From Tubiluchus corallicola (Eukaryota > Animalia > Priapulida), in contig JAQGDQ010000692.1 of NCBI GenBank assembly GCA_030141605.1, forward strand, positions 1 through 64,000: a stretch of DNA of 64,000 nt, in the 5' to 3' direction. Shown piece after piece: positions 31,588-58,596 of the stretch. The translations under genes were made by a program, and so were the position numbers. Positions within the stretch are counted from its first letter, which is position 1; each line of letters begins with the position of its first letter. Below the pieces are notes generated by a model. That model saw only the letters and a program-made list of their open reading frames with translations. It did no database searches and was not told the DNA's origin.

Positions 31588-32215
31588 TTACTGAGATCTC
31601 ACTTGAATTAACAGAAAATCAGAGCTGAACTGATTCGTCTTAAGCAGTTTTGAATGAGATCTCACTTGAATTAACAGAAAATCAGAGCTAAACTGATTCA
31701 TCTTAAGCAGTTTTGACTGAGATCTCACTTGAATTAACAGAAAATCAGAGCTAAACTGATTCGTCTTAAGCAGTTTTGAATGAGATCTCACTTGAATTAA
31801 CAGAAAATCAGAGTTGAACTGATTCGTCTTAAGCAGTTCTGACTGGGATCTCACTTGAATTAACAGAAAATCAGAGTTAAACTGATTCGTCTTAATCAGT
31901 TCTGACTGAGATCTCACTTGACTTAACAGAAAATCAGAGCTGAACTGATTCATCTTAAGCAGTTCTTACTGAGATCTCACTTGAATTAACAGAAAATCAG
32001 AGTTTAACTGATTCATCTTAAGCAGTTTTGACTGAGATCTCACTTGAATTTACAGAAAATCAGAGCTGAACTGATTCGTCTTAAGCAGTTCTGACTGAGA
32101 TCTCACTTGAATTAACAGAAAATCAGAGCTGAACTGATTCGTCTTAATCAGTTCTGACTGAGATCTCACTTGAATTAACAGAAAATCAGAATTAAACAGA
32201 TTCGTTTTGAACAGT
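31588..32215. repeat. Minisatellite, 63-bp unit x~10
   Basis: ACTGAGATCTCACTTGAATTAACAGAAAATCAGAGCTGAACTGATTCGTCTTAAGCAGTT repeated. Confidence 0.96.
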
Positions 32216-32526: not shown

Positions 32527-35500
32527 TCATGAATTAACAGAACTGATGACTGTCCTCACATCTTTCCACAAAGTGAAATTTTCCTTTGAGCAAAGACGAT
32601 CTAATGTTTCTTTGGTTTCTCCAGAAATGGAAGTGGCTTCGTTGACAGTAAGTGATTCAACATGTTTACACAACATCTTGAACGTACAAGCATCACTAAA
32701 TGTTGCCTTGTCCAGTTGCTTAAGCCTAACCAAAAAAAAGAAGGAATATCAATAAGCCTTTCCACAGTTCCAGGGATTGCTGATGATCATGAAAAGGTCA
32801 AAGGTTAAGTGTACCAGACAACGCCTTTGTGTACACTTGACAACACCTCGCAGCCCAAGCTGTTGTAACAGTAACAGTTTTAGCAGCCAGCTAGAACCTT
32901 AACCTAGTTCATTGTTTCTTGTTCAAAAGCAAGATCCTGCTAGTAAATCACTTTATACACAGACTAAAGCATAATTAAGTAAAGTCCACATAAAACAACT
33001 GAGGTTATTGAACTGATGAGGGACACAGCTTTGCTTTATCCACATGACACATGACGGTTGTAGTTAAGACGCATTGCTGTGGTACACTTAACCTTTGATC
33101 TATAGCAACTGCACGTGCGCACAACGAAACTGTGAAAAAACAACTTCAGATTTACACATCAATCAAAAGTTAGCGAAGCATTATAGTTTTGAGTTTAGTA
33201 ATTTACAGAAAAATATAATTATTGTTACTAAAATTTTGTTGAAAACTGAAAATACCGAGTCTCTCGTTTGTAGAGTTTTCATTTTTTTAACTGTATGTTA
33301 TTGTCACAGTGTTTGAGCAGGTAAATATTATCAGCTATAGTAACTATGCAAAATTTGAGTGCACCAATTAAGGCTCATCCACTAGCAACTTGCTATAGCA
33401 AATTACAATCAATATGATGGATGGTGCTGCCATCTACTGTCAGAATGACTAGTTACATAACGAATGCAGAACAACAGGCTCATCCACTAGCAACCTGCTA
33501 TAACAAATTACAATCAATATGATGTATGGTGCTGCCATCTACTATCAGAATGACTAGTTACATAACGAATGCAGAACAACAAGTGTAAAAGGCCCACGAA
33601 AGTAAAAATCATGCAATCCATTTGTTTCCAAAGTGATTTATGAAAAATTCTACAAGCAGTTAGTCTTACAGACACTCCCAAAAACAGACGACCATATAAC
33701 TCAATTGGAAAGAAGTCAAAAGTTTTTATAGTTTCATCATGAATTGTGTGCATGCTCTGCAAATGTCCATAAGTCGGCAATTAAGCTTTTCTAGTTATTC
33801 GCATATCCTGAATCTCCATTTCATGAGGGTCATTTTGATACCAAGCTCATCACTCTATGTTATTTCTAAGCTGAGATAATCAATGTTGAAGTTGAGGTGC
33901 ACGCTACGTAAGGGCATTGAAAAACATAATCTCCAGAAAATCGCTGCAAAAGTTAGCCATTGTTTTTCGTCGCGTTCCTACAAAACACTTAGCAACCGTA
34001 AAAATGTTGGTTGCCACGGGCTTTGCAAGAACACGTGTTTAAATCCAGGAGATGGCTCTTCCTGACGAAGGTCTGGGCTTCGCAACAGAAAAAAATCCGA
34101 AGCAAAATGACTGCTTCTACGAGCTGCTATCAGAGTTTGAAATTAGGAGTTTCTTTACAATTGCAGTACCAGTTTCTAGTCAGAAAACTGGGGTACGGAG
34201 TTATAAAATTAGATTTTTGTATTTATTGAACATTTTCTTGATAATTTGATGCTACAATATAAAAGTTCAATAGCATTTGTTTTTATAAAAAAAACAACAA
34301 CAAAAAATTGACATTAGACCAAATTTTTTGTGCATTCTGCAATGTTAGAAAATTTTCTATTAAATACAATGGCCCTTACATATGGAATTCAATTGCTCCA
34401 GCTATTAAAAATGCCAACTCGCTTTCCATATTTAAAAAAAATATAAATTAAACTTACTTGAAACATATAACTGATGACTCAATCATGATTTGTTGTTTTT
34501 CATTTTCAAAAACTTGTATAGTATAATAATATTTTTATTACTTCCCACCCGTATTTACATTTGTATATATTGTAATATTGTATCTGTATATATTATAATT
34601 TTTTTCGTAACTAATTCTAGTGGCCTACCATACGCTAGCTTCTTAGGTCTCTAGCGCAATATTCATGAATTGTATCATATTTTTGTATTAACAAAACCTG
34701 ATTATCGTGCACATGTAATGTATATGTATATGTATATGTTTATTGCGAAATAAATCTATTAAAAAAAAGAAGCATCATGGCGTAATTTTAACTGTTCCGA
34801 CTTGTGGATGGTTCTGATTTGCAAACACACAATTATAGAAATAATCCGTAATTATGTACAACTTTCTTGTGCTGATGATTTGAAAACATCATTCTTGAAT
34901 TGAGTAAAGTTTTTTGAGAGTAAACCAATGTCCTCACCGCCACGTCATCTGAGGTGTGCTATAATCAGGGTACATACAATCAGCCATTTCCACTAAAGTT
35001 TTCATATACAAAACATAAAACTCGTGCCACTTAGAAGCCACCGTAGCCAAAGTCTCAAGCGGAACACACCAGAGCCATCTAGAGGAAAAAGGAAATATAA
35101 TTGTACACACATCTCACTTTTTATGGCAAGCAAAAATTTCTGTGCAATTATTAGATGAGTCACGTCATCAGCGATAGCATCAAGAATAGTAGGTAAAATT
35201 AGTGGGGGTGCTCCTTCAGAAAATATTTAGACCTCTTTTTCAATATTGTGTGAAACGAAACAAGACATATGTAATTTTAATGTTGCAAGTTGCAATTGTA
35301 GTTTTAAATGGTGGGAATTATGGAAGTTTATACATAAATTTGATAAAATCCTAAACAAAAAAATATTTTTTGCTTACTAATAGCCAGTTCAAGCTTGATC
35401 CATTCACGGTAAGCATGTGAGAACTGACAACAAACTGTGCAAAGGACAGTACTTTCTCTACCTGGGCTCAGACATGCCATGCGCACAACAGTCAAACACC

Positions 35501-38500
35501 GCATCGCTTTTAAAAGATAATCAGTAATGAGTAATCAGTAACGGATTACACTTACTAAAAGTAATCAGTATGAGTAATCAGTAACAGAGTAATGCTTACA
35601 ATTACTAAAAGTAATCAGTAACTGATTACACTTACTAGAAGTAATTGGTATGAGTAATCAGTAATGGATTACACTTACTAAAAGTAATCAGTATGAGTAA
35701 TCAGTAACGGAGTAACGGTTACCCTTACTAAAAGTAATCAGTAATGAGTAATCTGTAACTGATTACTCTTACTAAAAGTAATCAATAATGAGCAATCAGT
35801 GACGGATTACCCTTACTAAAAGTAATCAGTAATGAGTAATCAGTGACGGATTACTCTTACTAAAAGTAATCAGTAATGAGTAATCAGTAACAGAGTAACG
35901 GTTACCCATACTAAAAGTAATCAGTAACGGATTACACTTACTAAAGGTAATGAGTAATCAGTGACGGATTACACTTACTAAAAGCAATCAGTATGAGTAA
36001 TCAGTAACGGAGTAACGGTTACCCTTACTAAAAGTAATCAGTAACGGATTACACTTACTAAAAGTAATGAGTAATCAGTGACGGATTACACTTACTAAAA
36101 GCAATCAGTATGAGTAATCAGTAACGGAGTAACGGTTACCCTTACTAAAAGTAATCAGTAACGGATTACACTTACTAAAAGTAATGAGTAATCAGTGACG
36201 GATTACACTTACTAAAAGCAATCAGTATGAGTAATCAGTAACGGAGTAACGGTTACCCTTACTAAAAGTAATCAGTAACGGATTACACTTACTAAAAGTA
36301 ATGAGTAATCAGTAACGGATTACACTTACTAAAAGCAATCAGTATGAGTAATCAGTAACGGAGTAACGGTTACCCTTACTAAAAGTAATCAGCAATGAGT
36401 TATCACGACAAATTACTTTACAAAAGTAACGAACCCATCACTGTTAAAGAATAAAGCCTTTACCTGTAAGATTTTGAGCTGCAGTAATCCAGTAACCAAG
36501 TCTTGAGAAAAGTTTCTTTTGAAAGTTTAACATTATCAGTATCAGTGGTATCCATAATGAGATGCAAGACGTTAAAAATAACTTCCTGAAAAGAGTAGAT
36601 ATAAGAATAGTTTTAATAATTTAAGAACGAAAAATAAAATCAAAATGTTAAATGCAAAAATATTGCAAGATTGTATGAAAATGGACAATAGACTTCCTAG
36701 CATTTATTGAACTATGGTGCAATTTATGGCAACTAATCATTAAAGGACAAGAAAGCCATTTATTTACATGAAGCAAAAAAAAATTATTTGAAATTTCGCA
36801 TTACCTACAGATTGTCTTATTGCATACAGGGTTTGCAGTAGTAGAATTCTGTATAAAACTTTAAAATAAAAAAAACAACCATTAGGCACAGCCAATTTGA
36901 TGGCAAGTTGTTTGAAACAAGTTTAGATAAAATTGCGCGAAGTTTGAAAAAATAATCAGAGCTTCCGTAACGCACACGTTACTAACAACGTAAAAGTTTA
37001 AATTACTTTACGTTGTCAATAAGATTAATAATATGTTTTTGGTGAGTCGGTCACACACACTGGAAAGACGAGTCATTGACGTTTTACCAGTCGGTGCGAA
37101 CGTTTTAAATTACTAAGAATTTTCTTTTCTCTTATATAAGTCTTTCAAACGGATAAGTGTAAACCTAAGTAATATAACTTCGTATAGAAAACTTTTTGGA
37201 GTATGCTTCGGTACTCCCTTATCGTCCCTTTAGGAATGAAATATACTAGAAACAAGCATGTTAAAAATACAGAAATATCCTAAAATGTATGAAAACGGAT
37301 ATCAGAATTCTTACCATTTAGTGAACTAGGGTAATTTATGGCGTGCAATAATTAACAATCATAATCATCCACATTGTACAATAATTAACAATCATAATCA
37401 TCCACATTGTACAATAATTAACAATCATAATCATCCACATTGTACAATAATTAACAATCATAATCATCCACATTGTACAATAATTAACAATCATAATCAT
37501 CCACATTGTACAATAATTAACAATCATAATCATCCACATCAATAATTAACAATCATAATCATCCACATTGTACAATAATTAACAATCATGATCATCCACA
37601 TTGTACAATAATTAACAATCATAATCATCCACATTGTACAATAATTAACAATCATAATCATCCACATTGTACAATAATTAACAATCATAATCATCCACAT
37701 TGTACAATAATTAACAATCATAATCATCCACATTGTACAATAATTAACAATCATAATCATCAACATTGTACAATAATTAACAATCATAATCATCCACATT
37801 GTACAATAATTAACAATCATAATCATCAACATTGTACAATAATTAACAATCATAATCATCCACATTGTACAATAATTAACAATCATAATCATCCACATTG
37901 TACAAAAACAATCTCACAAAAATTGAGATATTGTCTTAAAAATGCTGTTAATGTAAGTAAAAGTTTCTTACTAGTCCCCGGGTTTCATTTGCAATGCGCT
38001 CAAGTTTATTCATCAAATATATACGCACCCTGAAAAAAGTATTTAATGAAAATAAGTATTACGGCATTGGCAACATAGTTTATGTAACCTACATTTCATA
38101 CTACGTTGAGATGCATTCATACTATCACTGCTTTCTCTTATAATACTAGATTTTTGCATGAAAATTGTTCATTGTAAATTTTTTAAGAAGTCTGCGAAGA
38201 CAAATCAATTACTATTATTATTGTTAATTCTTTATTAAATGTGGATAACAACAAAATAAACAAATTTAAAATTGTTTCCAAAGTGATACACAAAATAAAA
38301 TAAAGGCAAATAACATTACAGAAACTTTGTACACTGGAAGCTTTAAAACCACAAAAACACAAAATCCAAAGCTTTAGAAATTACACAGTTAAAAAAACAA
38401 TTATAAATACCGAGTCATAAAATCTGTTTTAGAAATTACACAGTTAAAAAAACAATTAAAAATACCGAGTCATAAAATCTGTTTTAGAAATTACACAGTT

Positions 38501-39878
38501 AAAAAAACAATTATAAATACCGAGTCATAAAATCTGTTTAAGAAATTACACAGTTTAAAAACAATTTAAAATACCGAGTCATAAAATCTGTTTTAGAAAT
38601 TACACAGTTTAAAAAAACAATTAAAAATACTGAGTCATAAAATCTGTTTTAGAAATGACACAGTTCAAAAAAACAATTAAAAATACCAAGTCATAAAATC
38701 TGTTTTAGAAATGACACAGTTAAAAAAACAATTAAAAATACCGAGTCATAAAATCTGTTTTAGAAATTACACAGTTTAAAAAAACAATTAAAAATACCGA
38801 GTCATAAAATCTGTTTTAGAAATTACACAGTTCAAAAAAACAATTAAAAATGCCGAGTCATAAAATCTGTTTTAGAAATTACACAGTTTAAAAAAATAAT
38901 TAAAAATATCGTGTCATAAAATCTGTTTAAGAGATTACACAGTTAAAAAAACAATTAAAAATACTGAGTCATAAAATCTGTTTAAGAAATTACACAGTTC
39001 AAAAAAACAATTAAAAATACCGAGTCATAAAATCTGTTTAAGAAATTACACAGTTTAAAAAAGCAATTTAAAATACCAAGTCATAAAATCTGTTTTAGAA
39101 ATCACACAATTTAAAAAACAATTAAAAATACCGAGTCATAAAATTTGTTTTAGAAATAACACAGTTTAAAAAAGCAATTAAAAATACAGAGCCATAAAAT
39201 CTGTTTAAGAAATGACACAGTTTAAAAAAACAATTAAAAATACTGAGTCATAAAAAGCACTCACTGGCAGGGACTACTTGCAGTGGAATGATATGTGGCA
39301 TGCCCAGACCGCCGTCCCGTTATCAAGGAAAACTGAACGGCACAGATAAACTATAATCAGATTTGCAGACAGAAATACCCATTCTAGGCAACCACCCAGC
39401 CATTTAGCAGGTTCGACACTACCTAGCTTTGTTTTTTCAGTGCATGCCATAACCACTCAGCTATTTAGCACATCTGAGCAAATTTTGCATATCATGTAAA
39501 ACAAAACACCCAATTAGCAACTGGTTTTAACTAAAAGTACGCACCTCTCGGTCGTGATGAACTCGAGCAAGTTCTCAATATGTTTGTCCAATAATCGAGC
39601 TTGAGCCTTCATTGCTGATGCCAGCATAGTCGCTTGCAACAATTCATTTCCCGATTCACTGAGCTGGTCGAGTACTTTATGAAGATCACTTGTTGGCTGG
39701 TTGGCAGTCTGGATTAATTCCTACAGTAGAAAACCACATAGACCAAATTACCTGTACTTCCCTTTCATTTAAACTTCTGCTCCCTGTTTGCTTTATGCGA
39801 ACATACTGCCTCCTCTCTCTCTCTCTCTCTCTCTCTCCCTCTCACTTGCTTTCTCTCTCTCTCTCCTTCACTCTCTCT

Positions 39879-39955
<77 letters not shown>

Positions 39956-42900
39956 CTTTCTCTCTCTCTCTCTCTCTCTCTTTCGTATTTAATTTTTATT
40001 TTTCTATTTCATTTGGGGCCACCAAATTCACTTCGCCTAGGGCCTCCAATTACCTAAGGCCGGCCCGGCATTCAAATATATATAGAAACTGTCGATAATA
40101 AAGTCGATAAGCACTTTTGTATGGCCAATGAGCTTTTGCTAGTTTTATGTCATCTTAGTTCGCGTTTAAGCACTACAAAATACGTAGAAACAAGGTACCT
40201 ATTTGTTTGTAAGCAGGTACGTTTGTGATGCGTTAATACGCTAGCATAGCAATTTTGCTTTGAATCTGTTACCCGCTCCCCCATGCAATAAATCTGATTA
40301 TAAAAGAATTTCAAGAAGCTAAACATTTAATCACTTGTCTAGAGGTATGCTTTGAGTATATTTAGGCATTACTTCGATTCTAAAATTCATTAAAACCCTT
40401 TGCAGTGCATATTTATCAGATGATTCATACTGCTGAACCAGTAATACCACACCCATCGGTTAACAGATTCAGTCCGTTAATTTGGTCAAAACACTTCAGT
40501 CCTAAAGTTAGTCTATTAAACGGCACCTACTGTACTAGCAAAACTCCAACAATAGCAAATTTATTAGTTTTGTTAGACACTGGCTATTCAAATAAAACGT
40601 CCCTCATAACAAATCAAACCTCTGCAACAGAATTAAGAACAATGTTTAAAATCCCAATTTTGCAAGCACATAAAGACTTCTACACAATCTTGTTTTTATA
40701 TAAATACATCAACAATATTAACACGCCCTTCATCAAAAATAAGCTTCCACTCCTCTTGGAGCCAACATTAAATCCAAGAACACACAATATTAAACAAATA
40801 CGCACTAATAACAAATACGGCAACAATTCTATCACTAAACAAGGAGTTCAACTTTGGAATACCCTGCCATCAAATTTAAAACAAATCAAGTCTTTCGACG
40901 AATTCAAATCAAAATTAAAAACACATACATTAAATCGTTTTGAAAACCCAACATACGTAAACGATAATATATATTCATCCACAAATTTCATTTACCCGCG
41001 TCCATTTTAAATTATATGTATATATTGTATATAGTCTATTATAATTTCCGTGTAATATTATAATGTATATTTTGTTTTAAATTTTTGGCACAGTAGTTTT
41101 TAGTTTGCACTGGACGCATTTGCCTTTAACAGTTGTGTGAATTTTATTCTCATGCTGCGATGTTCTTTTATGCTTTTATAGTTGTGAATATCGATTTTTT
41201 ATGGCAAATAAAGATTATTATATATATAAATGAGACATTCTTCCAAATACCTGAGCATTTTCAATCTTCACTTCATATCCTCGTCGTAGCACCAAATCAA
41301 GAAGCTTAGCATGATCCAGATGAGGATTCCGAAGCAGTGCCTGAAAAGGGCAAGTAAAGAATGAGCGAATTAAAAAACTTGGAATTTTGAGATAAAAGAA
41401 AAACTTTAGCCTTCGTGATTACATTAAGAATTCATAACAAAATTCAATGTTATATGCATTATATGAAAAGAAATATTTCAAAAGCATTGAGAGTAACACA
41501 ATTTGATAATGGTAATCACCTGCATTCTTTTTCCACAGTAATCTTAATAAAACGTGACTATGCTCAACAGGTTACTGAACACTTTATAATCATGATCACA
41601 GTTTTTCTTAGTTCTCGCTCCATTTCATCTTTCATTCACTACTACCCCAACTTTTATGTATATATTATCATTATTTCAATTATTAATCACTTCTTTAAGA
41701 TTTCCACGTACAGTTTGGCCTGTCAAGCTATACTTTTAGGCTCAAACTATAGGCATCAAAATTATTCTGTAATGTAATTTGCACATGTATATGCTGCATA
41801 AGAATCTCTTTTGTAATTTCTGGATAATATTTCATTTACATTTATATTTATTCAGTGAAATTATCTGTATTTTTATTACAACTGTTAGATGCAGAGTGGA
41901 AATGAATAAACTTATAACTTCAGTTTTGACCTTTGCATTACAAATACAGAATAGCAAATTATTTTTCATGCCGAATTTCAAATGATTAAAATTTACCCTA
42001 CGTATCGGAACCTTAAACAAAACATAACAGAAAATGATGACGATGATGACTATCATGTCTGTAAACACTTAACATACAAAAAAACCTGCTTGTGTAGTTA
42101 TTACCAGAGTTTGATGGAGTAAAGTTTGATGTCATCTAAACATGAGTCAGTTTTTACACTGACAGTTTTTGTTTGTCAGTTTTAGTATGACAGTTTAAAA
42201 ACTGATGGTGTAAAAGGTACAGAAATGCATACTGGGGTTTGAATCCCGACTTTATAGTTTTCATAAAATAAACTGTTAAGCTAATTGTTGTCTAAGCTGA
42301 TAGGTTTATTCACTTACAACAGTCACTACCTGTTGAATTTTCACAATTTCACAGTTCAAGCAAGGAATCATAACTATTCAAGTGCTATACAAACTACCAT
42401 GTTTACTAAAAGTTTTCAAAAATGAAAAAAACATGCTCCCTCCACTATAGGTTTAAACTTTTAAAAGATTACTATAGCATACTGCATTAATACCAAAATG
42501 CTATTATATCTATCCATTGCTGGATATCGTAAATTGCCCCACAATAGCAAGGTATCTTAACTATCAATAATGTGATTTTTCATCAAATTAAAAAATATTT
42601 CAAAGCTGTACCTGTTGCAGCAGATCCACAGACCTTCCAAGGAGCTCCAAATCAATTTTTTCCGTACCAATTGCAACTGGCACTTTTGCAAGGGCTCTTA
42701 CCTGCCTGTCCAAATCTTGATAGTAAGAACGGTGCTTTGCTTGCTTATAAATCTGAGGAAAATAATTTTACAATGTGCCAGGTGACTATGACAGTAAACA
42801 GAAGCATGGATTGAAAGAAGCCAATAAAGTTACCAAGAAATTTAACTCCTTCAGGACAATAATCATTTGCTGCATTTTGCATGCGTTCATGAAAAACTGC

Positions 42901-45900
42901 TCTCACTAAGTAGCGATTACATTACATTTGATCATTTTTGTAGGTTTCTACTCCTCACATAGATTTTCATGCAAAATTATAGGGTGTATAAGAAATGCAT
43001 TTACTTATTTTATACAAATTAAAATCGATTTTTGATAGAAAAATTGAAAAAAGCTTCCACTAACTGCAGCGTTTGCACTGTAACAATGTACAGTATCGCT
43101 CATGTGAAATCTGCTAATGAAGAAAATTGCAACTATCCAGACACAACACTCTGATAAACTTTGGCCTCAACTCTTCACTATTTTTAAGGAGAAATTCCTG
43201 ATAAAAGGTAACACCACCTTAATTTGTTCTTGACTGATCGTTTGATTTTTCCTGGAACTCTGTTCAGCAAACAGCTCTCTTGGGCTGTAGTAACAATGTA
43301 GTGTGTACGATCTTGCAAGTGTAAGCCAGACTAAGCTTTTCAATAGGCTAGGTTAAAGTGCCTGAAGAGGGCGTGTTTTACTCAGTTTTATCGAATTAAA
43401 TTACTTATAACTGTTTAAACAAATGGCATGATTGGATAGCCAAGATTCTTGTGAACAGAACAATACCTAATTTGTAATCATTTTGTTATATCTGTGCTCA
43501 TACAGTAACAGAAAAGTCATAGGTCTTATAAGACCTATTTTCAATGATACGTTCTTACCCAATTTTATCTAATTAAATTACTTATAAATGTTTAAACAAA
43601 TGGCATGATTGGATACCAAGATTCTCGTGAACAGAACAATACCTAATTTGTAATCATTTAGTTATGTCTGTGCTCATACAGTAACAGAGAAATCAAAGGT
43701 CTTATAAGACCTATTTTCAATGATACGTTCTTACTCAATTTTATCGAATTAAATTACTTATCAATGTTTAAACAAATGGCATGATTGGATACCAAGATTC
43801 TCGTGAACAGAACAATACCTAATTTGTAATCATTTAGTCATGTCTGTACTCATACAGTAACAGAAAAGTCATAGGTCTTATAAGACCTATTTTCAATGAT
43901 GCGTTCCTGAAGGAGTTAAGAAAATTTGAGGTGCCGCACAATGCTTAATTTTAATTTAGCAAATCAGTAGATGACTTCACCATTAACTATACAGATGCAA
44001 ACATGATTATATTAATAGGTCGTAGTTGCCTAACTGAAGTTCAGCAATAATATTAACAAATAGCTCTGCCAATTTTACTCTTGTATTGTGCATAATTTTA
44101 TCACAGAAATCAGTTACAGACATGGCATACAGTTATGAGACTGAACTTTGTAAAATCACAATGTGGTAGATCAATAATTTTTGCAAACATACATGAGCAG
44201 ATTTTTAAAATACTATTACTAATCTTATGTCACCTAAATTAGTGACAGACAGCACATCAAATATACAAAACATTATCTAGCAATCAAGTCCAACTTTCAA
44301 AAATCAGAAAAGTTTGTGCCAATCACTTATATTGATCGAGCCACCAAATCTGGCACATAACAGATAAAAAATCAGTGAGCATCATTTAAATTTTGTAACG
44401 TAAGTCTGCTAGCTTTGGTACTTCCAAGTTTGTGAAACAAAATGTGCATCATTCAGTTCTGCTTTTGATCTTGATAGCCCTGATGACAGAGATTAGCAAG
44501 TACACAAACAACACGGTGCCTGTTGCAATGTACGTCCATATCACAGTGTTCTCTTCGGGCATGAAACATTTGCTGACAACAACGTTACGAGGCGTGAACC
44601 TCACTAGCAGGTAAGCAGGATTGTTGCGATTTCTCCAGCTAAACGAGGGAACTGTCCATTCGGGAGTTCCGTCTGGATGAATCACGTAACATCCATGGTG
44701 GGTGTGTCCCGTAAAAATGGCTCGAGGCTTCAACAAAGAAAAAATTTTTTCCGTTGCTTCTTTCGACAGGCATTCCCACTTTTCTCGAAAGTTTTCAGAT
44801 TTTTCTTCCACCGATGCAGCATCTGGGCCAGTGCAGACTTCGTCGGAAGGTCGATACATGGGAAAATGCTGCATAACAACGGGATTCGAGTAGGAAGCAT
44901 TTAGCATGCCAGTGCACAGGGATTCTCCATTTTTGGCACAGTTTAGCACCTTTGACAATGATTCCAATAATTTCACAGCTTCAGAACACATGTCGCATTT
45001 GTCTCCCTCCATTGCCATACTATTTATCAGCACGAATACATTTTCTTTGATGGTAACATATTTAACAGACGGAGTGGCAAAAGTTTTCTTAAACCGTTTA
45101 TACAACTGACTATTGACAGCATAATAATGAAAGCCAATATCATGATTGCCCATCACAACATAGAGTGGTACTTCCTTGGGCAGATAAAACATGCTGTAGA
45201 ACCGGTCTACAGTTTTCTGAAACTCCTGCGCACTCGCCCACTGCCCTTCGTCGAAGAGATCGCCCAGGACAAAAACTACCTCCGGCCGATGAAGCACAAC
45301 TGCCGTTTGGAAGGATCGCCACATTTGCCACTCACGGCGTAACTTGTCCCACCAATGTCCACGTCGTGAGCCAAGAAGATGCGGATCGGCAAGAATTAGA
45401 CCATCAAGAGATGAGACATTTGTTTCAATCAAGGGCCATGAACACTGGATCAAAACGAGGTAATAGATGAACCACTCATTGCACAGAAAGACAGCAAACG
45501 CTCCAAAAGTTAGACGAAATACAAGTTTCTTTACGTATGTTTTTTGGAGACGCATTTTGAGAACTGTCACTCTCCAAAATAATCTTTGCCCGATTAAATT
45601 TTAAACTTTGCAGCAATAAGAAGTCATCTTGGCCTATCATCAGGTGTTATGATACATTTCCTGCAGAGAAATTAGTGTTACTATACTTCAGTTTTGCGCT
45701 CTTTATTCTCTCGGTAAATATTAAATATTCATCTAACCTTCAATAACAATTCTCAATACAGGGTTTATGTCCAAATTATTCTGATTAATTCCACTTCTAT
45801 TAATTTTCAGGTAACATGCCTAAGCTTAATTTTGCACATAAATTGTTTTAAGGAGATAAAATTAAAGTGTAAATTGTACATACAATTACTATAAGATATA

Positions 45901-47656
45901 GTCTTACACTCCAACTTTGCAAACCAGTTAACAAAAGAATTTTAATAGTTATATTAATATGACACACAAACAATAGACGGTGTAGAAAGACCTCGCGTAA
46001 TGCAATCACATTTAGCGATTAATCATTTTAAAGTTTAAATAATGACTGCTTAAATTTAACAGTGATGTAGTATTCGTAATACACACTGATATATATATAT
46101 ATCATATAATGAGTTCATGAAACTGTGGGTTTTTTTAAAAATGGCAAGGATCCAGTAGTGTGCACTGTGTAAAGTTCAGTGCCATCTTTTGGTGGACAAG
46201 TGAAGCATAGCATATACTTGTTTTTTATACAGTAAAATGGCGTTTACCTGGCTTCCCGGATGCGTATACGTTATGCGGAATAGATTTATATACTGGTTTC
46301 AAATCTATCCGTTTATCAGCATTATTTTTTTCTGCAGCTATTTCACACCTATTATATGTAGCTATTCTGTAAGAGCGCAGCACATCACGCATATACAGTC
46401 TGGATAACAAGTAAATGCCATTTGCTAATTCATTTCTTTGTTTCTGTCATTGATTCATGGAATTTTCGTCCTCTCTAAATTCATAAACGTGTGTCCTTAT
46501 CGTCACTTAAATCACATCTAAAAAACACTTGGGTTTCAACAAGCACCCCAAATATTATTCTTGAAGTGACCGTAGACTAACTGTTCTTTAAACGTGAATG
46601 TGGGTTGGCTCTTCTCAACTAAAATGTGAACTAGTCACACAGAATGTAAAAACTAGGATGGAACCCCCTTTTAACTACCCATAGATGCGGTGCCCCTTTT
46701 GAAACAATTAGCCATTTTCTAATTATCTGCCTGCTATATCACCAGACTCGAGATATATTACTAAGCAAACTCTGTACTTTGTTAATTCCTCACAATATTA
46801 GAATTTATAATCTGTCAACAAATGAACTCGTTTATCTGCTTCTTCATGATAATCAACACTTAAATACAACTGCTAACATCCAAGTATTTAAACTTGTACA
46901 GAACTTTATATTTCTAACTAAGTGCTTCTAACCATTGTATTAGTTTATAATGTTTATATAATAATATTAATGTCATCTCAACATTATGCTATGTATGTAT
47001 ATATACTGCTAGTAGTCGTATTTACATGCTTCAACTGTTTGTTTATTGTCTGCACTCTTCTAAGTATACGTAAAACATATTGTAATCTTTGTTATTCAAC
47101 AAACCTATATTTAAATTAAACTAACTAAACTCCATTTTACACCGAATTACAAAAAATAATGAAAAATTATCTATTTGCTGCTGTCATTTAGCGACTTATG
47201 GCCTTGTGGATTTAAGCACACATCTGTTAACAGTGATATGGGTACATTCATGTTCATTTATGCACCCCAAGCGCATTATAAAGCATCCGATTTGTTTGAC
47301 TTTGGAATAATTCAAAGTGACATTTGAGTAAAAAGCAGAACTCTTTGAGTTAAGCACGCTCAACAGCACAAATTCCACACAAGCAAAAACTTCTAAAAAG
47401 CTGAATTTACATTAGCCATATACTACTGACTGATCAACTAGGTGTGAAAGGATCCTAACATATTGGAATTATTAATAGTAACTATTAATCCGAGTATTAC
47501 TAGTAAAAGACTAGTAAGTACCTGCTCACAATAAGTAGCCCACTGGAAGGCATTCCTCACACTATTTTCATCATACGTGATTACTGCATTAGTCCGTGAC
47601 GCCTGCAAAATTTCTAGAAAAGTGTAAACATTTTTGAGGATATCTGCCAGTGACAT
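32527..47656 (-). CDS. FANCF: Fanconi anemia group F-like protein, 8 coding exons, 353 aa
   Basis: Exons 47656-47522 (MSLADILKNVYTFLEILQASRTNAVITYDENSVRNAFQWATYCEQ), 42752-42612 (IYKQ...LGRSVDLLQQ), 41340-41251 (ALLRNPHL...), 39720-39545, 38029-37972, 36585-36464 (FLKTWLL), 35078-34938 (WCVPLETLATVASKWHEFYVLYMKTL...PDY...W), 32725-32527 (...FTLWKDV...stop). All GT-AG, phases 0,0,0,2,0,2,2 are consistent, 1062 nt. N- and C-terminal motifs parallel human FANCF as I recall it (WDPATVRRALQWARY; LLENRAL; SIWTDL). Confidence 0.85.
32751..33140 (+). mobile_element. Family B TIR element, copy 3, 25 nt from the FANCF last-exon acceptor
   Basis: Homologous to 1219-1604. Confidence 0.85.
33371..33581. 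repeat. Tandem duplication, ~105 bp x2
   Basis: AGGCTCATCCACTAGCAAC at 33371 and 33476. Confidence 0.9.
33770..34215. mobile_element. Dispersed repeat family G; reverse copy at ~50945-51395
   Basis: AAGTCGGCAATTAAGCTTT...CATTTTGATACC.AGCTCATC matches the reverse complement of 51280-51394. Confidence 0.7.
34300..34770 (+). mobile_element. LINE (L2/CR1-group) 3' remnant
   Basis: Translates RKFSIKYNGPYIWNSIAPAIKNANSLSIFKK, typical ORF2 C-terminus, then an AT-rich tail with AATAAA and an A-run. Confidence 0.7.
35515..36443. repeat. AGTAATC/GTAACG-based compound tandem array, likely expanded subterminal repeats of a TIR element
   Basis: Units such as AGTAATCAGTAACGGATTACACTTACTAAA; ends in ACCCATCACTG (reverse complement CAGTGATGGGT). 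Confidence 0.9.
37345..37905. repeat. Minisatellite, 33-bp unit x~17
   Basis: CAATAATTAACAATCATAATCATCCACATTGTA repeated. Confidence 0.97.
38374..39256. repeat. Minisatellite, ~55-57-bp unit x~16
   Basis: AGAAATTACACAGTTAAAAAAACAATTAAAAATACCGAGTCATAAAATCTGTTTT repeated. Confidence 0.97.
39810..39981. repeat. (CT)n microsatellite
   Basis: Interrupted CT dinucleotide run. Confidence 0.97.
40590..41225 (+). mobile_element. 5'-truncated LINE (L2/CR1-group) ORF2 C-terminus and 3' UTR
   Basis: RTNNKYGNNSITKQGVQLWNTLPSNLKQIKSFDEFKSKLK motif, followed by AATAAA and an (ATT)n tail near 41207-41222. Confidence 0.8.
43378..43905. repeat. Tandem repeat, ~176-bp unit x3
   Basis: Unit starts at 43378, 43555 and 43731; each contains the palindrome AGGTCTTATAAGACCT. 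Confidence 0.95.
44449..45555 (-). CDS. MPPE1: Metallophosphoesterase 1 (PGAP5, GPI-remodelling), uninterrupted ORF, 368 aa, nested in FANCF intron 1
   Basis: N-terminal TM with FLCNEWFIYY; ADPHLLG, WDKLRREWQM, LGDLFDEG, GNHDIGF, QHFP, FTGHTH, VPSFSWRNRNNP; C-terminal TM. First in-frame ATG at 45555 (track starts at a GTG, 45570). Confidence 0.95.
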   Translation of the reverse strand: MRLQKTYVKKLVFRLTFGAFAVFLCNEWFIYYLVLIQCSWPLIETNVSSLDGLILADPHLLGSRRGHWWDKLRREWQMWRSFQTAVVLHRPEVVFVLGDLFDEGQWASAQEFQKTVDRFYSMFYLPKEVPLYVVMGNHDIGFHYYAVNSQLYKRFKKTFATPSVKYVTIKENVFVLINSMAMEGDKCDMCSEAVKLLESLSKVLNCAKNGESLCTGMLNASYSNPVVMQHFPMYRPSDEVCTGPDAASVEEKSENFREKWECLSKEATEKIFSLLKPRAIFTGHTHHGCYVIHPDGTPEWTVPSFSWRNRNNPAYLLVRFTPRNVVVSKCFMPEENTVIWTYIATGTVLFVYLLISVIRAIKIKSRTE

Positions 47657-47900
47657 ATTTTAGACAGCAGTAACAGCCATAATAAAAATCACTTTCAAGT
47701 CTTTTCCTTGCTTCAGCTGGTTCACATCAAGACATTAATCAGCTTAAACACCGTAAAGATTACGGACACATCACGATTTCAGTTTCAATTTCAAAAATCA
47801 ACGATTTACTCAGCAGGTATTTTCATAATGTCATTACCCATTACGCACTGCGGGCAACAACCGAAACTTTTCTGTACATGCAAGCTCGGTTTGCTCGCAA
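47657..47900. promoter_or_regulatory. Putative bidirectional promoter region for FANCF and NUDCD3-like
   Basis: FANCF ATG at 47656 (-); a + strand donor CAG|GTATTT at 47816/47817 could join the acceptor at 48828; locally higher CpG content. Inferred. Confidence 0.45.
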
Positions 47901-48838
47901 AAGATTACCGTACGTGCCGTTACCCATAGAAACCTGGTTTGTTTTAGAAGCTTTGATGATCATCTGAATGTTACTGACTTTTTGCATCGTGTCTTTGGTA
48001 ATTATAATCGCCATTTTTGTTCCTTGGTAATAATTTGCCTGTATTTTATGTTAGTGGTTTATTCAGTATTTGTTCATTTATTAAAATTTTCATTTACACA
48101 TGGCCCAAACTAGTACAAATGATATCGCATATGTTGCGTACTTTGGCAATGGACGTGTTGTTCTTTGTACAATTGAAAAGTGAATGAAATTGTACGGTTT
48201 TCTTGCTGCCATTAAAGCAAGAATGAGAATGGGTCCATATATATGAAAATCTCTAATGTTCACGTGGCATCATTTAAACATATGCACTGATACTATTGTT
48301 TAATTCATTGTGATGGCAGTTTATTCAACATATCACTATTGTTAATAATCGGTTATGAGTAAGAAAAAACGGTTTAGCTTGATTTACATTCCAAAAGTGT
48401 TCTTTCCACGATACAACTTGGAAATATAGTTAGATGTTTCTTGATATGATATTCCTGCTTTACCAATTACAATCTTTATGCAGAGCCCTAGCTGAAGTTG
48501 TGCATCTACCTAGATGTAATTTTCTCGAGCAGAGTTTGGGTTTCTGGGCGTTTTGGAGATTTAAAAAACCAAGAATCGTGAAGATTTTTTTCTTTTTTTA
48601 GAATTTAATGACACTTCTGCAAAATCTTCCTTATATGCAAGGTTATCATTATATGAATGAAATAATTTTGCCCATAGATATATTTTTTCAACTTTTTTCG
48701 TTTCTTGAGTTCCTGATAATTCTTGACTGCAGACGGTGAGATGCTTAACGCAAAACAATACCGTGTTATTTTTTTAATCTAAATTATTGTTGTGAATTGT
48801 TACGAATGAAGATACTTTATGTTATTAGTGATTCTACT

Positions 48839-51800
48839 ATGCCTGATACAGAGTGTTACAATGGAGCAGTGCGTAAGAACTATTCTTGGTCTCAGTCAAT
48901 AGCAGATGTCGATGTCCGTATTCCCGTACCTGAATGTGTTAGAAGAGGGGAAGATGTACAGGTGGGTGTACATATGGAAACACGTCTACACGTTTGTATA
49001 TGCATTACGGATCACGCCTTACACATGGAGTCGTACCTTTACCATTAAACTTTCTTATAAATTTGTGAAAATTTTAAATGCTTTGTGACTAGTTCTAGTT
49101 TTAGTTCTTTAATAAAAAACAAAAAAGGGAGTAACTATCTACTGAGAAACTACTTTAGTAGTTCAATGCAGTATTTAACTATTGAGGGCCGAATATGAGT
49201 CCTTCATCGGTGCAAAAATAAAAAAGCTTAAATTCACGAGCGACCTAGGCCAAGTTTTGATTTCTTATGTTAAAGCAAAACCGGACCCAATCTTAAACTG
49301 TCGATCAAAACAATCTGCGCTTTAGAATATTGAAAGGAAACATACTATTTTTTCAAAAATCACTTGCGTGAAATAATTACCACAGAATTCACGTTTGCGC
49401 CACTAGTTCTTCGCTGGTACATGCATTTTGCCATTTGCTACTTAGACGGGCACTAGCACCTACATTTCGGAAATACAATGCACAAAAACAGGTGCTGTAC
49501 CACGCAGTTCAGATGTGTTACTTTGTGATGCACTACACATGTTCAACAATTCATGTGTGAGAACAGCGGTAAATTTAAAATTTGAATTTTTATCTTAAAA
49601 CTTGCCTAATTTTAGCACAACACACTGAATCTGTTACAGTAGCACTGTACTTTAATTTTCGCTTTTGCAAATATGTGCAACACGCTCGTGGAATATTTTT
49701 GTGTTTGAAAATTATGCTAATTTGTGATGTCATCAATAGTTGGGCTTGCCCACTGTTAATTAAGATTTTAATCTATTATTTAATTATCAGAAACGCTTTT
49801 GCAGTATTAATTGTGTTAAAATGTAGATTTTTTTACTGGACTTGAAAATGGGCCAGTATATGAAAAGTGTCTTCTTTTAGAATACATAAATTACAGTTCA
49901 ATTTCCGAGCTCAGTTTTACTTTTCTTTACAATCATTGTTACTGCAGGTTTCTATACAAGCGCAGTCACTAGATGTACATGTGAAACACGACATCAATTT
50001 TGATGACGTTGTTTGCGGGAAACTGTGCTGGAAAATAAACAAGGAAGAATCCATGTGGACTCTACTGCCTGGAGAATGCATTCAAGTTAGTATTTGAAAT
50101 ACCCTCATATCTCCGTTTGCCAGACAAAAGCGGGAAGATGTCGGTCCGAATTGCCAATTGTCCATATTTACTGATACCAAGCTAATATTATACGTGCCGT
50201 GTATAGACTCTTGGTAATGTAGAATCAATCGCCTAATTGTCTCAAAACCGTCTAGAGCTGGCCCTGACATACAAGCTGCATGCGTGTCATTACACGCTGC
50301 TTGATTGCTCTGATGTAAACAATGTGACGACCTGCCAACTAGCGGTCAGCTCGTGAAACAACGGTCTGTGTCCATAGTATGCAGGACTACTAACGGACCA
50401 GATTTTGTCCGATTTTTCCGATATCCGCAAATGCGAGGTCCGGTCAGATATGAGTGTGTTCTGTTTTCTAAATCCTTTTGCCTTTCATTTACTAATAGTT
50501 CAGACCTTTGAATGAAAGAAAAATCCTTATCTGTGAGTGCTGATAGCTCATTATCATTGTCTACACATGAGGCCTGTTTTTGTTTGAATAAATAGCTTTA
50601 CACTCTGTTTAATATTACTTTTGCTATAGGGATTTTAAGACAGTAAAGTACAGATTGTAACATGCACTCTTGGCAAATGCAGTCAAATATGCAGAAATAA
50701 ACAGTATTTTGAATCATTGACTCACTGTCTCCTGCACTTAAATTCTTGTTTCATACACGTGCTTTTAGTATGAAATCTTACCTTATAAGCGTGTGACCAT
50801 ATTTTCGTTGCCTATGTGTGTGCTTCCAAACCAAAACCGTCCACAAGTCAGCATAGTAAAAACTTAGTAAAAACAGCAACGTGTTATGATGGTTCAAAGT
50901 AGAATACACCAAAAAAAATTTCAAATGTCAATTTTTTGTTTTTTATAAAATCTAATTTTATGACCCCAAACCCACTTTTATGGCTAGAAACCAGTAATGC
51001 AATTGTAAAAAAAAATTGTACTTCATCCTCCAATAGTAACTAACGGAAACAGTCATTTTGCTTCGGGTTTTTTTACATTGCCAAGCCCAGATCTTTGTCA
51101 GTAAGAGCCATCTACTAGATTTAAACATAACATTAATGTGTTCTTGCAAAGTCCGAGCAACTGACCTTTTGCACGGTTGTTTAATGTTTTGTAGAAACAT
51201 GACAAAAAACAATGGCTGACTTTAGCAGTGATTTACTCAAGGTTACATTTCTCAGTGCATAGCCTGCACCTCAACTTCAACGTGGATTATCTCAGCTTAG
51301 AAATAACATAGAGCGATGAGCTCGGTATCAAAATGATCCTCATAAAATGGAGATTCGGGATGCGTGAATAACTAGAAAGCTTAATTGCCGACTTATTGAC
51401 GATTTTGCCATGCAAGCGCACATATACGAATTCGTTGAACAAGGTACGAATTCCGAAGTTGCATGAATGGGACATTTATGTTGCAGATAAATTTGGCAAA
51501 GAGCGATGAACGATGGTGGGATGCTTTGTTGGAAGGAGAAGAAAAGATTGACTTAAGTGAAATCGATGCATGCAGGGAAAAGGACACACTTTCAGCAGAA
51601 GAACAAGCAACTGTAGATAAAATGTTGTACGATCATCACCAGAAATTAAGAGGAAAACCTACAACAGAGGAACAGGTGAGTAGTAGGGCTATAACGATAC
51701 ACCTAAGTCACGATACAATACATATTGCGATATTAACCTCACGATAAGATACATATCGCGATACTAACCTCACGATACGATACATATCGCGATACTAACC

Positions 51801-52741
51801 TCACGATACGATACATATCGCGATACTAACCTCACGATAAGATACATATCGCGATACTAACCTCACGATAAGATACGTATCATGCTACACATTGAGTTAA
51901 CGTCTGCAGGTTTTAATAAAAAGAACTAGATTATGTTGTTGATATATTATATGTATATATTAGATTCACCAAGCAATTTTAATTTTGGTAAGTGCTAAAA
52001 TAATTCAGCGAATTGTTTGATTTCTGTTTATGCTCTTGTATTATTTGCATTGTAAGCCACCAGAAATGCAAAACATTTCAATACTTTTTGATTTAAAATA
52101 TGCAGGCACATTTTCTAGTTCACATTTGCTGCAAGCCACTTCAGAAACTTATAAACAGCAACGTAATTAGCCTATGATACATTATTATAACACATTGCCT
52201 TCCTTTGGCTGGTTGCTAGCAGCAGGTCTGTCTGTGTCTGTGGCAAATTTTTTTAACTTTCATACAAGTGGAGGGTTTTCTTGTACTTTAAGTCCTTGTA
52301 CTAAACTCCATCTTCAGGGAATCAATGTACATGTTAGCGCAATCTCTTACAGTTTGGCTTGGTTCTGGTTTCAGTTACAGCAGGCTGTTGCTAATATTAT
52401 ATACAATAAACTCTGTTTTATTCAGTTTAGTGTAGACCCACTAAGTGTAAAACTGCAGTTTCATAACTAGCAGAAATCTTCATTCCAAAAAACTGCAGGT
52501 AATTCCTTGGCCTGAATTTGATGTATGAGCATGGAAAATATTAAATTAGGGATTTATATATTGTTCTTCAAAATTGAAAGCATTACTTAAAGTGTCAGCC
52601 ACTTCATGTTTGTTTCAGAAGCTTCACAATATTATGAAGGAAGCATGGGACAAGGAAGGGTCTCCTTTTAGAGGACAGCCATTTGACCCATCAAAGCTCA
52701 AGTTTAACTTGGGTGGTTCTCTAAACTTGGACACACATTAA
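48839..52741 (+). CDS. NUDCD3: NudC domain-containing protein 3-like (CS/p23 domain plus C-terminal region only), 4 coding exons, ~190 aa
   Basis: Phase-0 exons 48839-48961 (YNGAVRKNYSWSQSIADVDVRIPVP), 49948-50085 (GKLCWKINKEESMWTL), 51487-51675 (ERWWDALLEGEEKID...YDHHQKLRGKP), 52619-52741 (AWDKEGSPFRGQPFDP, stop). Start codon is inferred. Confidence 0.88.
49270..49880 (+). mobile_element. Dispersed repeat family F (TTAA-flanked, Kolobok-like)
   Basis: Begins TTAAAGCAAAACCGGACCCAATCTTAAACTG; homologous to 15865-16200 and 30832-31377. Confidence 0.65.
50101..50457 (+). mobile_element. TIR element family D, copy 2
   Basis: Ends ACCCTCATATCT / AGATATGAGTGT; interior matches 11052-11356 in reverse. 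Confidence 0.7.
51683..51890. repeat. Minisatellite, 31-bp unit x~6, starting 7 nt after a NUDCD3 donor
   Basis: ACGATA(A/C)GATACATATCGCGATACTAACCTC repeated; begins TAGGGCT, like a hAT end. Confidence 0.92.
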
Positions 52742-53675: not shown

Positions 53676-54540
53676 TCCAGAATGAGGGGGGCACTAGATG
53701 CTAGCCATCCAGTGAGAGAGGGGCACTAGATGCCAGCCATCCAGTGTGAGAGGTACTAGACTCCAGCCATCCAGTATAAGGGGGGCACTAAATGCCAGGT
53801 CTCATGATTGGCATCTAATGTGAGAGGGGTACTAGACACCGAGCTTCCAGTGTGAAGGGGCACTAGACACCGAGCTTCCAGTGTGAGGGGACACTAGACA
53901 CCGAGCTTCCAGTGTGAGGGGGCACTAGACACCGAGCTTCCAGCGTGAGGGGGCACTAGACACCGAGCTTCCAGTGTGAGGGGGCACTAGACACTGAGCT
54001 TCCAGTGTGAGGGGGCACTAGACACCGAGCTTCCAGTGTGAGGGGGCACTAGATACCGAGCTTTCAGTGTGAGGGGACACTAGACACCGAGCTTCCAGTG
54101 TGAGGGGGCAATAGACACCGAGCTTCCAGTGTGAGGGGGCACTAGACACCGAGCTTTCAGTGTGAGGGGGCACTAGATACCGAGCTTTCAGTGTGAGGGG
54201 GCACTAGACACCGAGCTTCCAGTGTGAGGGGGCACTAGATACCGAGCTTCCAGTGTGAGGGGGCACTAGACACCGAGCTTCCAGTGTGAGGGGGCACTAG
54301 ATACCGAGCTTCCAGTGTGAGAGGTACTAGACTCCAGCCATCCAGTATAAGGGGGGCACTAAATGCCAGGTCTCATGATTGGCATCTAATGTGAGAGGGG
54401 TACTAGACACCGAGCTTCCAGTGTGAGGGGGCACTAGACACCGAGCTTCCAGTGTGAGGGGGCACTAGACACCGAGCTTCCAGCGTGATGGGGCACTAGA
54501 TACCGAGCTTTCAGTGTGAGGGGGCACTAGACGCGAGGCT
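53676..54540. repeat. G-rich minisatellite, 31-bp unit x~27
   Basis: GAGCTTCCAGTGTGAGGGGGCACTAGACACC repeated; a divergent 3-unit block occurs twice (~53745-53835, ~54315-54405). Confidence 0.97.
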
Positions 54541-57900: not shown

Positions 57901-58596
57901 AGTCAAAGGTTAAGTGTACGCCGGCAACGCGTTTTTAATATAACCGTCATGTGACATGTGTGTAAAGTATCAGTCGTATCAGTTCAGCAACTTCACTTGT
58001 CTTACGTGTACTTTATTCAATTATGCATTAGTCTGTGCATAGAATGATTTACTAGCAGGACCTTACTTGAAAAGCAAGAAAAAATGAACTAGGTAAGGTT
58101 CGAACTAGTTGTTAAAACTGTTACTATTACAGTGGCTTGGGCTGCAAGCTGCTGTCAGGTGTAAACAAATGCGTTGTCTGGTACACTTAACCTTTGACCT
58201 TTTCACAATCATCATCAATTGCTGGAACGGTGAAAAGGCTTATAGGATGTAGAGTTGTGCATAGCTTATAAGTTTAGGTCCTTCGTTTATTTGACAGCCT
58301 TAGGCCCGCAAAGCCCTTAATGCACCCCTGTCGAGGAGTAAGATTCATCTTTACAAAGAAAGCCTTACCTCTGAAGCAGCCTGGCGAACTTGAGAGACAT
58401 AGACATCCAAGTTTTTCATCAGAGTTTTTTGAGGTGTTTGTTGTGCAGTAACCGGGGAATGCTCATAAACGGCAGCTTTGTAAGTGCACTGGTCGTTTTT
58501 GGATTCCTCCGATCTTGTGCAGTAGCTTGAAAGTAGCAGTACAAGACATACTAGACATGCCATATTGAAACGGGAAGTGGACCTTGAATACTCCAT
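54980..58596 (-). CDS. Biotinidase/vanin (pantetheinase)-family carbon-nitrogen hydrolase, 2 coding exons, ~500-515 aa, secreted
   Basis: Exon 58596 (or ATG 58563)-58369: signal peptide, YKAAVYEH, NLDVY. Exon 56296-54980: GANIIVFPEYG (Glu), KSRKRHPY (Lys), FGRFAVIICFDLLF (Cys), STAW, GSGIY, base domain ending GLFGYFY. Confidence 0.92.
56842..57286 (-). mobile_element. hAT-type MITE family A, copy 3
   Basis: TIR CAGGGGTGTGCAAATT at both ends, 8-bp TSD CCTTAGGC. Confidence 0.92.
57855..58243 (-). mobile_element. Family B TIR element, copy 4 (reverse)
   Basis: Reverse-complement homologue of 1219-1604. Confidence 0.85.

Follow-up and report, generated by a model that had tools for sequence, protein, structure and literature searches.

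An intronless MPPE1/PGAP5 gene nested in the first intron of FANCF in Tubiluchus corallicola, and a possible first exon common to both

Described nested genes that share host exons

The mouse Taf9 retrogene (human TAF9/AK6), a single-exon gene in an intron of Ak6, makes a chimeric transcript with upstream host exons and encodes a protein unrelated to that of its host; Carelli et al. count 13 retrocopies in human and 14 in mouse 'hitchhiking' on host promoters (PMC4772013, PMC5408686, PMC7749173). VAChT (unc-17) lies in the first intron of ChAT (cha-1) and has a first exon in common with it, giving a switch-like choice between two unrelated proteins; the common exon is untranslated, the two products act in one pathway and the arrangement is conserved from nematodes to mammals (PMC3875643, PMC3053374). 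In C. elegans unc-60A/B, the common first exon carries the start codon, both products are related cofilins using this common AUG, and the choice between proximal and distal exons is set by acceptor repression and alternative polyadenylation (PMC3875643).

We analyzed a 64,000-nt stretch of T. corallicola DNA (the window), in which an intronless MPPE1/PGAP5 gene lies in the first intron of FANCF (Table 1). The whole MPPE1 reading frame is within the host intron and on the same strand, as in nested genes that share host exons, and the locus encodes two unrelated proteins with no fusion product, as do Taf9/Ak6 and VAChT/ChAT. This architecture is already known from these two systems; new here are a top-ranking acceptor ahead of MPPE1, at 45660, and a short protein from a close relative, P0121. 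We consider it probable that the locus uses alternative last-exon splicing, with FANCF exon 1 joining either MPPE1 (45660) or exon 2 (42752); exon 1 thus likely also serves as the first exon of an MPPE1 mRNA.

The layout is that of Taf9/Ak6, with a chimeric transcript predicted here, but the genes and the lineage are different, the retro-origin of MPPE1 is presumptive, and the exon it would borrow has 45 conserved codons of the host, which would form part of an upstream open reading frame (uORF) of 51 codons in the MPPE1 frame. The first-intron nesting and the proposed choice between FANCF and MPPE1 recall VAChT/ChAT, except that the common exon is coding (FANCF ATG plus 45 codons), a departure from a cholinergic locus in the strict sense. 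We know of no connection linking crosslink repair with GPI remodelling. As in unc-60A/B, the common exon has a start codon and would be joined to a proximal or a distal exon; in contrast to that locus, the nested MPPE1 is unrelated to FANCF and needs its own downstream AUG. In the worm cholinergic locus, long complementary intronic elements flank the nested gene. MPPE1 departs from this strict model too: the best local complementarity between its flanks was 25 versus a null mean of 27.8, with 59 of 60 resampled pairs scoring at least as high, and long-range RNA pairing around MPPE1 was not above background.

Table 1. Features of the FANCF/MPPE1 locus (window coordinates)
Feature	Position	Strand	Remarks
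6-codon upstream ORF	47660..47680	-	ends 3 nt before FANCF ATG; relevant only if transcribed
FANCF exon 1	47522..47656	-	ATG + 45 codons; phase-0 donor CAG/GTACTT at 47521; PF11107 positions 3-43, E 3e-10
FANCF intron 1	42753..47521	-	4,769 nt; acceptor TTCCTCAG/AT at 42753
Donor-like CAG/GTAAAC	46242..46250	-	exon would end with 46248; a first exon specific to MPPE1 may stop here
3' splice site ahead of MPPE1	45661..45675	-	branch-like CTAAT, pyrimidine run, CAG/G; exon begins 45660
MPPE1 exon leader	45556..45660	-	105 nt; 6 codons, then stops in FANCF/MPPE1 frame
MPPE1/PGAP5 CDS	44449..45555	-	intronless, 368 aa, uninterrupted ORF
ATTAAA, candidate MPPE1 poly(A) signal	43950..43955	-	about 500 nt after stop; putative
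Repeated element	42842..43919	.	15-nt perfect terminal inverted repeats (I15); three internal 176-nt tandem copies (D1)
FANCF exon 2	42612..42752	-	30 of 47 residues as in Priapulus FANCF P0123; E 1.3e-14 with the profile
FANCF exon 3	41251..41340	-	8-exon FANCF model
FANCF exon 4	39545..39720	-	8-exon FANCF model
FANCF exon 5	37972..38029	-	8-exon FANCF model
FANCF exon 6	36464..36585	-	8-exon FANCF model
FANCF exon 7	34938..35078	-	donor CG/GTGAGG; PF11107 245-285, weak
FANCF exon 8 with stop codon	32527..32725	-	profile positions 306-356

The FANCF host gene and the MPPE1 reading frame

The host gene is FANCF, as seen from its PF11107 match and its full-length colinearity with FANCF homologues. 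It has eight exons separated by GT-AG introns and encodes 353 aa on the same strand as MPPE1. Against a 359-column profile from which the window's FANCF had been excluded, it reaches 249 bits, covering positions 1-355. A seven-exon model ending at 34934 was superseded, the eighth exon lifting the score from 232 to 249 bits. In the tree, the protein groups with Priapulus P0123 at 99/98. Of the 171 GT sites between 45662 and 48400, the exon 1 donor scores best (8.5 bits with a matrix from which it was excluded), and intron 1 is the longest of the seven, the other six being 1,271-2,212 nt. Homology supports the predicted splice of exon 1 to exon 2, the join being in phase 0 and gap-free against all 14 long FANCF homologues. 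Many short homologues from other animals continue with V (GTN) at the end of exon 1, so the position of intron 1 is old.

The nested reading frame is MPPE1/PGAP5, a Cdc1-like metallophosphoesterase: a domain search gave Pfam Metallophos (PF00149) at E 1.5e-13, identity to named MPPE1/PGAP5 proteins is 45-53% over most of the length, and the metal-binding motifs DPH, GD, GNHD and GHTH are all intact. Its activity, predicted through orthology, would be that of MPPE1/PGAP5, which we take to be GPI ethanolamine-phosphate phosphodiesterase. A quick version of the MPPE1 tree did not place the lineage. The earlier note on this DNA had placed this intronless frame, the exon 1 donor and the exon 2 acceptor exactly where we find them. 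Its premise that most nested genes are antisense to their host goes too far for mammals, which show only a slight bias of this kind (PMC11694760).

A misassembly that put MPPE1 between FANCF exons 1 and 2 is extremely improbable. The repeated element at 42842-43919 could favor such an error, and the locus is spanned by no contig of run X1, which looks like DNA sequenced at low depth from this or a very closely related species, or of run X2, which matched repeats only. However, the window contains no N, exon 1 and exons 2-8 combine, in the right order and frame, into a single complete gene, and data from a close relative, described below, tie exon 1 to MPPE1 independently of the window's assembly. 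No GT-AG joints were seen among those listed for the two runs, which says nothing on expression.

The predicted acceptor, leader and poly(A) signal of MPPE1

The earlier note had invoked an MPPE1 acceptor without giving its position; we place it at the AG before 45660, 105 nt ahead of the MPPE1 ATG. With a matrix built from only 10 other acceptors of the window, this site scores 12.1 bits and ranks first among 273 AG sites in FANCF intron 1 and first among the 126 upstream of the MPPE1 ATG, versus 7.8 bits for the acceptor of exon 2, itself excluded from the matrix when scored.

Four stops in frame, TGA TGA TAG (45642-45634) and TAA (45603-45601), separate exon 1 from the MPPE1 ATG and exclude a FANCF-MPPE1 fusion protein. 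By computation, exon 1 spliced to 45660 would instead give a uORF of 51 codons whose stop lies 84 nt ahead of the MPPE1 AUG. What the earlier note overlooked is that the exon common to both is a coding exon of FANCF and, on the MPPE1 mRNA, such a uORF. The predicted leader would hold nine AUGs from the FANCF ATG on, including those at 45657, 45640 and 45627 in the part next to MPPE1, and one of the nine opens a 54-codon out-of-frame ORF overlapping the MPPE1 start. Reinitiation declines as uORF length grows (PMC5972666). Because of its length and stop position, the exon 1 uORF would be expected to lower the efficiency of MPPE1 translation, which may proceed by reinitiation or leaky scanning.

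As had been reported, AATAAA is absent from the interval running from the MPPE1 stop to exon 2, which has ATTAAA at 43955-43950; the argument drawn from this for a weak poly(A) site lacks statistical support, since only 1.9 AATAAA would be expected and P(0)=0.14.

Under alternative last-exon splicing, exon 1 would either be joined at 45660, giving an MPPE1 mRNA that ends inside FANCF intron 1, or pass over this acceptor to exon 2, giving the FANCF mRNA. MPPE1 would be the major product and FANCF a minor, skip-dependent one, because the MPPE1 acceptor is both proximal and higher-scoring and intronic polyadenylation may occur near 43950. A DNA-repair gene and an ER housekeeping enzyme would then compete for one pre-mRNA, and FANCF would be made only when the strongest acceptor and a poly(A) site of its own intron are both passed over. 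In mammals, intronic polyadenylation limits the output of repair genes. If the proposal is correct, the locus would offer a natural test case for such limitation, and another for translation of a full protein behind a 51- to 61-codon uORF; gene predictors would be expected to fuse both genes or lose FANCF exon 1.

None of our results points to control by tissue or DNA damage, and it is distinctly unlikely that this choice is a regulated switch, in which last-exon selection would set the FANCF:PGAP5 ratio, toward FANCF in germline, dividing cells or upon DNA damage, with the exon 1 uORF gating PGAP5. Were it so, the truncated product of intronic polyadenylation in a repair gene would be a complete unrelated enzyme, and repair capacity would be coupled to GPI-protein export.

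Proteins of a close relative and the origin of the nesting

P0121, a public protein of 61 aa from a close relative, consists of FANCF exon 1 (44 of 45 residues identical) followed by a 16-aa tail and a stop, again with no fusion product. The tail corresponds neither to intron read-through nor to exon 2 and has a modest likeness to the sequence behind the 45660 acceptor. Among 42 FANCF matches (43, less one without the junction motif), the residue after this motif is V in 31, I in seven, A in two, M in one and G only in P0121. This G argues against read-through, since a phase-0 GT must give V, and the window's exon 2 gives I. P0121 and the relative's MPPE1, P0001 (86% identical to the window's), are each found on a single Logan contig, 1,629 nt long in both cases, and from this equal size we infer that both are on a common contig. 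Exon 1, the leader and the P0001 coding sequence add up to about 1,338 nt, so that UTRs would account for the remaining 290 nt or so. The close relative thus appears to join FANCF exon 1 onto MPPE1. Together with the top-ranking acceptor, P0121 and P0001 lend indirect support to the earlier proposal that the two genes are mutually exclusive outputs of one transcription unit.

The agreement in size could be due to chance, with the P0121 tail coming from another exon and MPPE1 being an independent nested gene with no exon in common with FANCF. We consider this very unlikely, although the common contig is deduced from equal size and the protein-level tail test at 45660 was not significant (score 4, with 9,583 of 127,886 positions equal or better). 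In nucleotide tests under six settings, picked after the protein-level test had failed, 45660 fell within the top 2-11 of the 276 AG sites in the intron and within the top 0.15-3.4% of the 7,252 in the window, but was tied or below first in the intron. Against chance, the 1,629-nt agreement between the two closest relatives is exact, whereas none of 18 other FANCF matches, used as controls, agreed in size with any of the 120 MPPE1 matches listed (compared by eye); P0121 alone has G at the junction; and the best-scoring acceptor also ranks within the top 1-4% of intron sites when judged by fit to the tail. FANCF searches yielded no protein of a close relative in which exon 1 continues into exon 2, P0121 being the only close match of four, and no full-length FANCF from the relative (one search, four candidates, none scored), which is weak evidence.

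Alternatively, MPPE1 may have its own promoter in intron 1 (about 46.3-46.6 kb), with a non-coding first exon ending at 46248 and the same acceptor; this transcript would make most of the MPPE1, and the exon 1-45660 splice would be a side product damping FANCF. The donor-like site at 46248 scores 7.3 bits and ranks third of 171, CpG o/e is 0.89-1.06 at 46000-46600 versus 0.69 for the window, and such a transcript would avoid the 51-codon uORF. VAChT likewise has promoters inside the ChAT intron besides the common ones (PMC3053374). We nevertheless regard an own promoter as rather unlikely: with 10-13 CpGs per 400 nt the counts are low, comparable values are found within the MPPE1 coding sequence and at 49.0-49.6 kb, and, if a single 1,629-nt contig carries both ORFs, the assembled path runs from exon 1 to MPPE1.

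The nesting may have arisen when an MPPE1 copy lacking introns, probably a retrocopy, was inserted into an old intron of FANCF, where it would have borrowed the host promoter and first exon. Retroposition is not proven, because intronless MPPE1 is present in other genomes too. Conservation of the nesting in relatives, which the earlier note had asked about, was not found: it is absent in Owenia and Lottia, unlike the widely conserved VAChT/ChAT arrangement, and no FANCF signal was detected at any of 80 metagenome MPPE1 loci (mostly short, 440 kb in total; best E 3.2). Some of these 80 loci have MPPE1 split into 3-5 pieces and others, of at least 5 kb, in a single piece, in a pattern search that favors unsplit genes. 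We take the nesting to be derived, since FANCF and MPPE1 of Owenia and Lottia sit on contigs of unequal size. No Priapulus MPPE1 was among the 120 matches listed of 1,008, and a search of mostly open-access literature found no paper on FANCF/MPPE1 nesting.

In the close relative, exon 1 is better conserved than MPPE1, a difference that is only mildly unusual, as 13 of 321 45-aa windows of MPPE1 do equally well. Contigs of run X1 align ungapped on MPPE1 at 44684-44883 and 44976-45529; one of them differs from the window at seven positions (four synonymous, three non-synonymous), too few for use. The repeated element at 42842-43919, which takes up most of the space separating exon 2 from the MPPE1 3' region, has a very high depth in the same run.

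MPPE1 within FANCF intron 1

MPPE1 had been described in the earlier note as nested, on the same strand, in intron 1 of FANCF. This arrangement is real: an intact, uninterrupted ORF of 368 aa lies between FANCF exons 1 and 2. It contains a Pfam Metallophos match with intact metal-binding motifs, and is 45-53% identical to named MPPE1/PGAP5 proteins and 86% identical to P0001, the MPPE1 protein of a relative. The FANCF gene model has 353 codons in 8 exons, all introns being GT-AG, and scores 249 bits over nearly the whole of a profile made from 14 homologues with the window FANCF left out. In a tree, the window FANCF clusters with Priapulus (support 99/98), which makes a priapulid or a related animal the likely source. 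Exons 1 and 2 join in phase 0 and without a gap relative to 14/14 homologues, and their splicing is predicted from this homology; no intron of the gene is longer than the one between them (4,769 nt). Human FANCF is described as having one coding exon only (PMC4657327). Many invertebrate FANCF matches continue with V after the same junction motif, which points to an old intron position at the end of exon 1. In mammals, same-strand nesting is reported to be nearly as frequent as antisense nesting (PMC11694760). We consider a misassembly highly improbable, although the locus is spanned by no independent contig.

Coordinates of features in the window
Feature	Position	Strand	Remarks
FANCF exon 1	47656-47522	-	PF11107, E 3e-10
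FANCF exon 2	42752-42612	-	
MPPE1 ORF	45555-44449	-	
Six-codon uORF	47660-47680	-	good context; stop 3 nt ahead of FANCF ATG
Three tandem stops in exon 1 frame	45634-45642	-	
Candidate poly(A) signal, ATTAAA	43955-43950		
MITE-like element	42842-43919		15-nt perfect terminal inverted repeats; three 176-nt tandem units
PDIA3-like gene	27117-28579	+	intronless; 487-aa protein disulfide isomerase
NudCD3-like gene	48830-52741	+	CS domain; head-to-head with FANCF
Vanin/biotinidase-like gene	54980-58560	-	catalytic and C-terminal domains in one ~1.3 kb exon
Chitinase-like gene, last exon	1842-2468	+	Thr-rich linker; CBM_14 domain
Long minisatellite arrays (by eye)	31590-32190, 35520-36400, 37330-37910, 38380-39250, 53700-54530		introns and intergenic DNA

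A candidate acceptor and a short FANCF protein in a relative

With a matrix based on 10 further acceptors in the window, AG|45660, ahead of MPPE1, ranks first among the 273 AG sites of FANCF intron 1 (12.1 bits, vs. 7.8 bits for the FANCF exon 2 acceptor and 2.3-12.9 bits for real acceptors scored left-out). A branch-like CTAAT is present and the MPPE1 ATG follows 105 nt downstream. The second-best acceptor of the intron (AG|43906, 11.5 bits) is created by the edge of the MITE-like element, which is of high copy in X1, a sequencing run matched against the window; it is possibly a cryptic site competing with FANCF exon 2.

FANCF exon 1, searched against 1.84 billion representatives, matched 43 proteins. 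The best match, P0121, a relative's public protein of 61 aa, matches exon 1 at 44/45 identity, followed by a 16-residue tail and a stop. In the 42 FANCF matches that carry the junction motif, the residue after it is V (31), I (7), A (2), M (1) or G (1), the last in P0121 alone. Since phase-0 read-through of GT gives V and the window's exon 2 gives I, P0121 reflects another junction. For both P0121 and P0001 the source is a single Logan contig, in each case 1,629 nt long, a length compatible with the ~1,338 nt sum of exon 1, leader and MPPE1 CDS; none of 18 other FANCF matches checked by eye is on a contig equal in size to those of the 120 MPPE1 matches listed. The P0121 tail showed no significant likeness to the window sequence behind 45660 at the protein level. 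By minimum nucleotide edits, 45660 ranks in the top 2-11 of 276 AG sites in the intron and in the top 0.15-3.4% of 7,252 in the window, suggesting a modest likeness. We infer that exon 1 is spliced to MPPE1 in the relative. The proposal of two outputs from one transcription unit gains partial support from new indirect evidence (acceptor rank and the P0121/P0001 pair).

Probable alternative last exons and a predicted upstream ORF

The best reading is that FANCF and MPPE1 probably arise by alternative last-exon choice from one promoter. Splicing from the exon 1 donor would lead to FANCF exon 2 or to the proximal acceptor (45660); with the latter, the 3′ end would form within the intron, the ATTAAA being the candidate signal. 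The earlier remarks on poly(A) signals are correct as description, but AATAAA could well be missing by chance (1.9 expected, P(0)=0.14). MPPE1 would be the major output, because the proximal acceptor is the stronger and P0121 is the sole close-relative trace of exon 1. A regulated switch between the two seems quite unlikely.

When exon 1 is joined to 45660, the FANCF frame stays open for 6 more codons and then meets TGA TGA TAG, with a fourth stop further on. On the MPPE1 mRNA, exon 1 would form a 51-codon uORF that ends 84 nt upstream of the MPPE1 ATG, itself in the same frame; the relative's uORF would have 61 codons. A FANCF-MPPE1 fusion protein is impossible, given four in-frame stops between exon 1 and the MPPE1 ATG. 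Within the sequence TGATG, an AUG overlaps the first two of the tandem stops and begins a 54-codon out-of-frame ORF that spans the MPPE1 start. The tandem-stop arrangement is not conserved, since the reading frame of P0121 continues past the corresponding position. The six-codon uORF ahead of FANCF could, if transcribed, carry ribosomes past the FANCF start, a layout like that of ATF4.

Counting against alternative last-exon choice, the leader from the FANCF start onward contains 9 AUGs, one of them opening an out-of-frame ORF that overlaps the MPPE1 start, and longer uORFs are reported to allow less reinitiation (PMC5972666). MPPE1 might instead have its own first exon, which a donor-like site at 46248 within a small CpG-rich stretch could supply, the exon 1 splice then being mainly a sink for FANCF; this we regard as rather unlikely.

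Alternative last-exon choice at FANCF/MPPE1 would work like Taf9/Ak6 and other host-exon-borrowing retrocopies (PMC4772013, PMC5408686, PMC7749173), and like VAChT in ChAT intron 1 (PMC3875643, PMC3053374). It does not qualify as a cholinergic locus in the strict sense: exon 1, which the two mRNAs would share, is coding, and a search for complementary elements on either side of MPPE1 found none. No paper on the FANCF/MPPE1 pair was found in the literature searched. The architecture is already known; what would be unusual here is the length of the host-coding uORF.

Origin of the nesting and neighbouring genes

FANCF and MPPE1 are on contigs of different lengths in Owenia and Lottia, and a FANCF signal is absent at 80 of 80 MPPE1 loci from metagenomes; the nesting is therefore derived. 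If the contig reading is right, it is common to at least one relative with 86% MPPE1 identity. Arrival of MPPE1 by retroposition is plausible but unproven, because unsplit as well as split forms of MPPE1 occur in other genomes and the PDIA3-like gene, a housekeeping gene within 16 kb of MPPE1, is likewise intronless.

The first exon identified for the gene upstream of FANCF, classed as NudCD3-like from its motifs, is ~1.2 kb away from the FANCF start codon. The expected N-terminal exons are not among the 56 + 140 plus-strand ORFs scanned in 2.5-48.8 kb, which covered ORFs from 33-42 aa upward outside some repeats. The gene could be truncated, its missing exons could be short and diverged, or it could use a shared bidirectional promoter.
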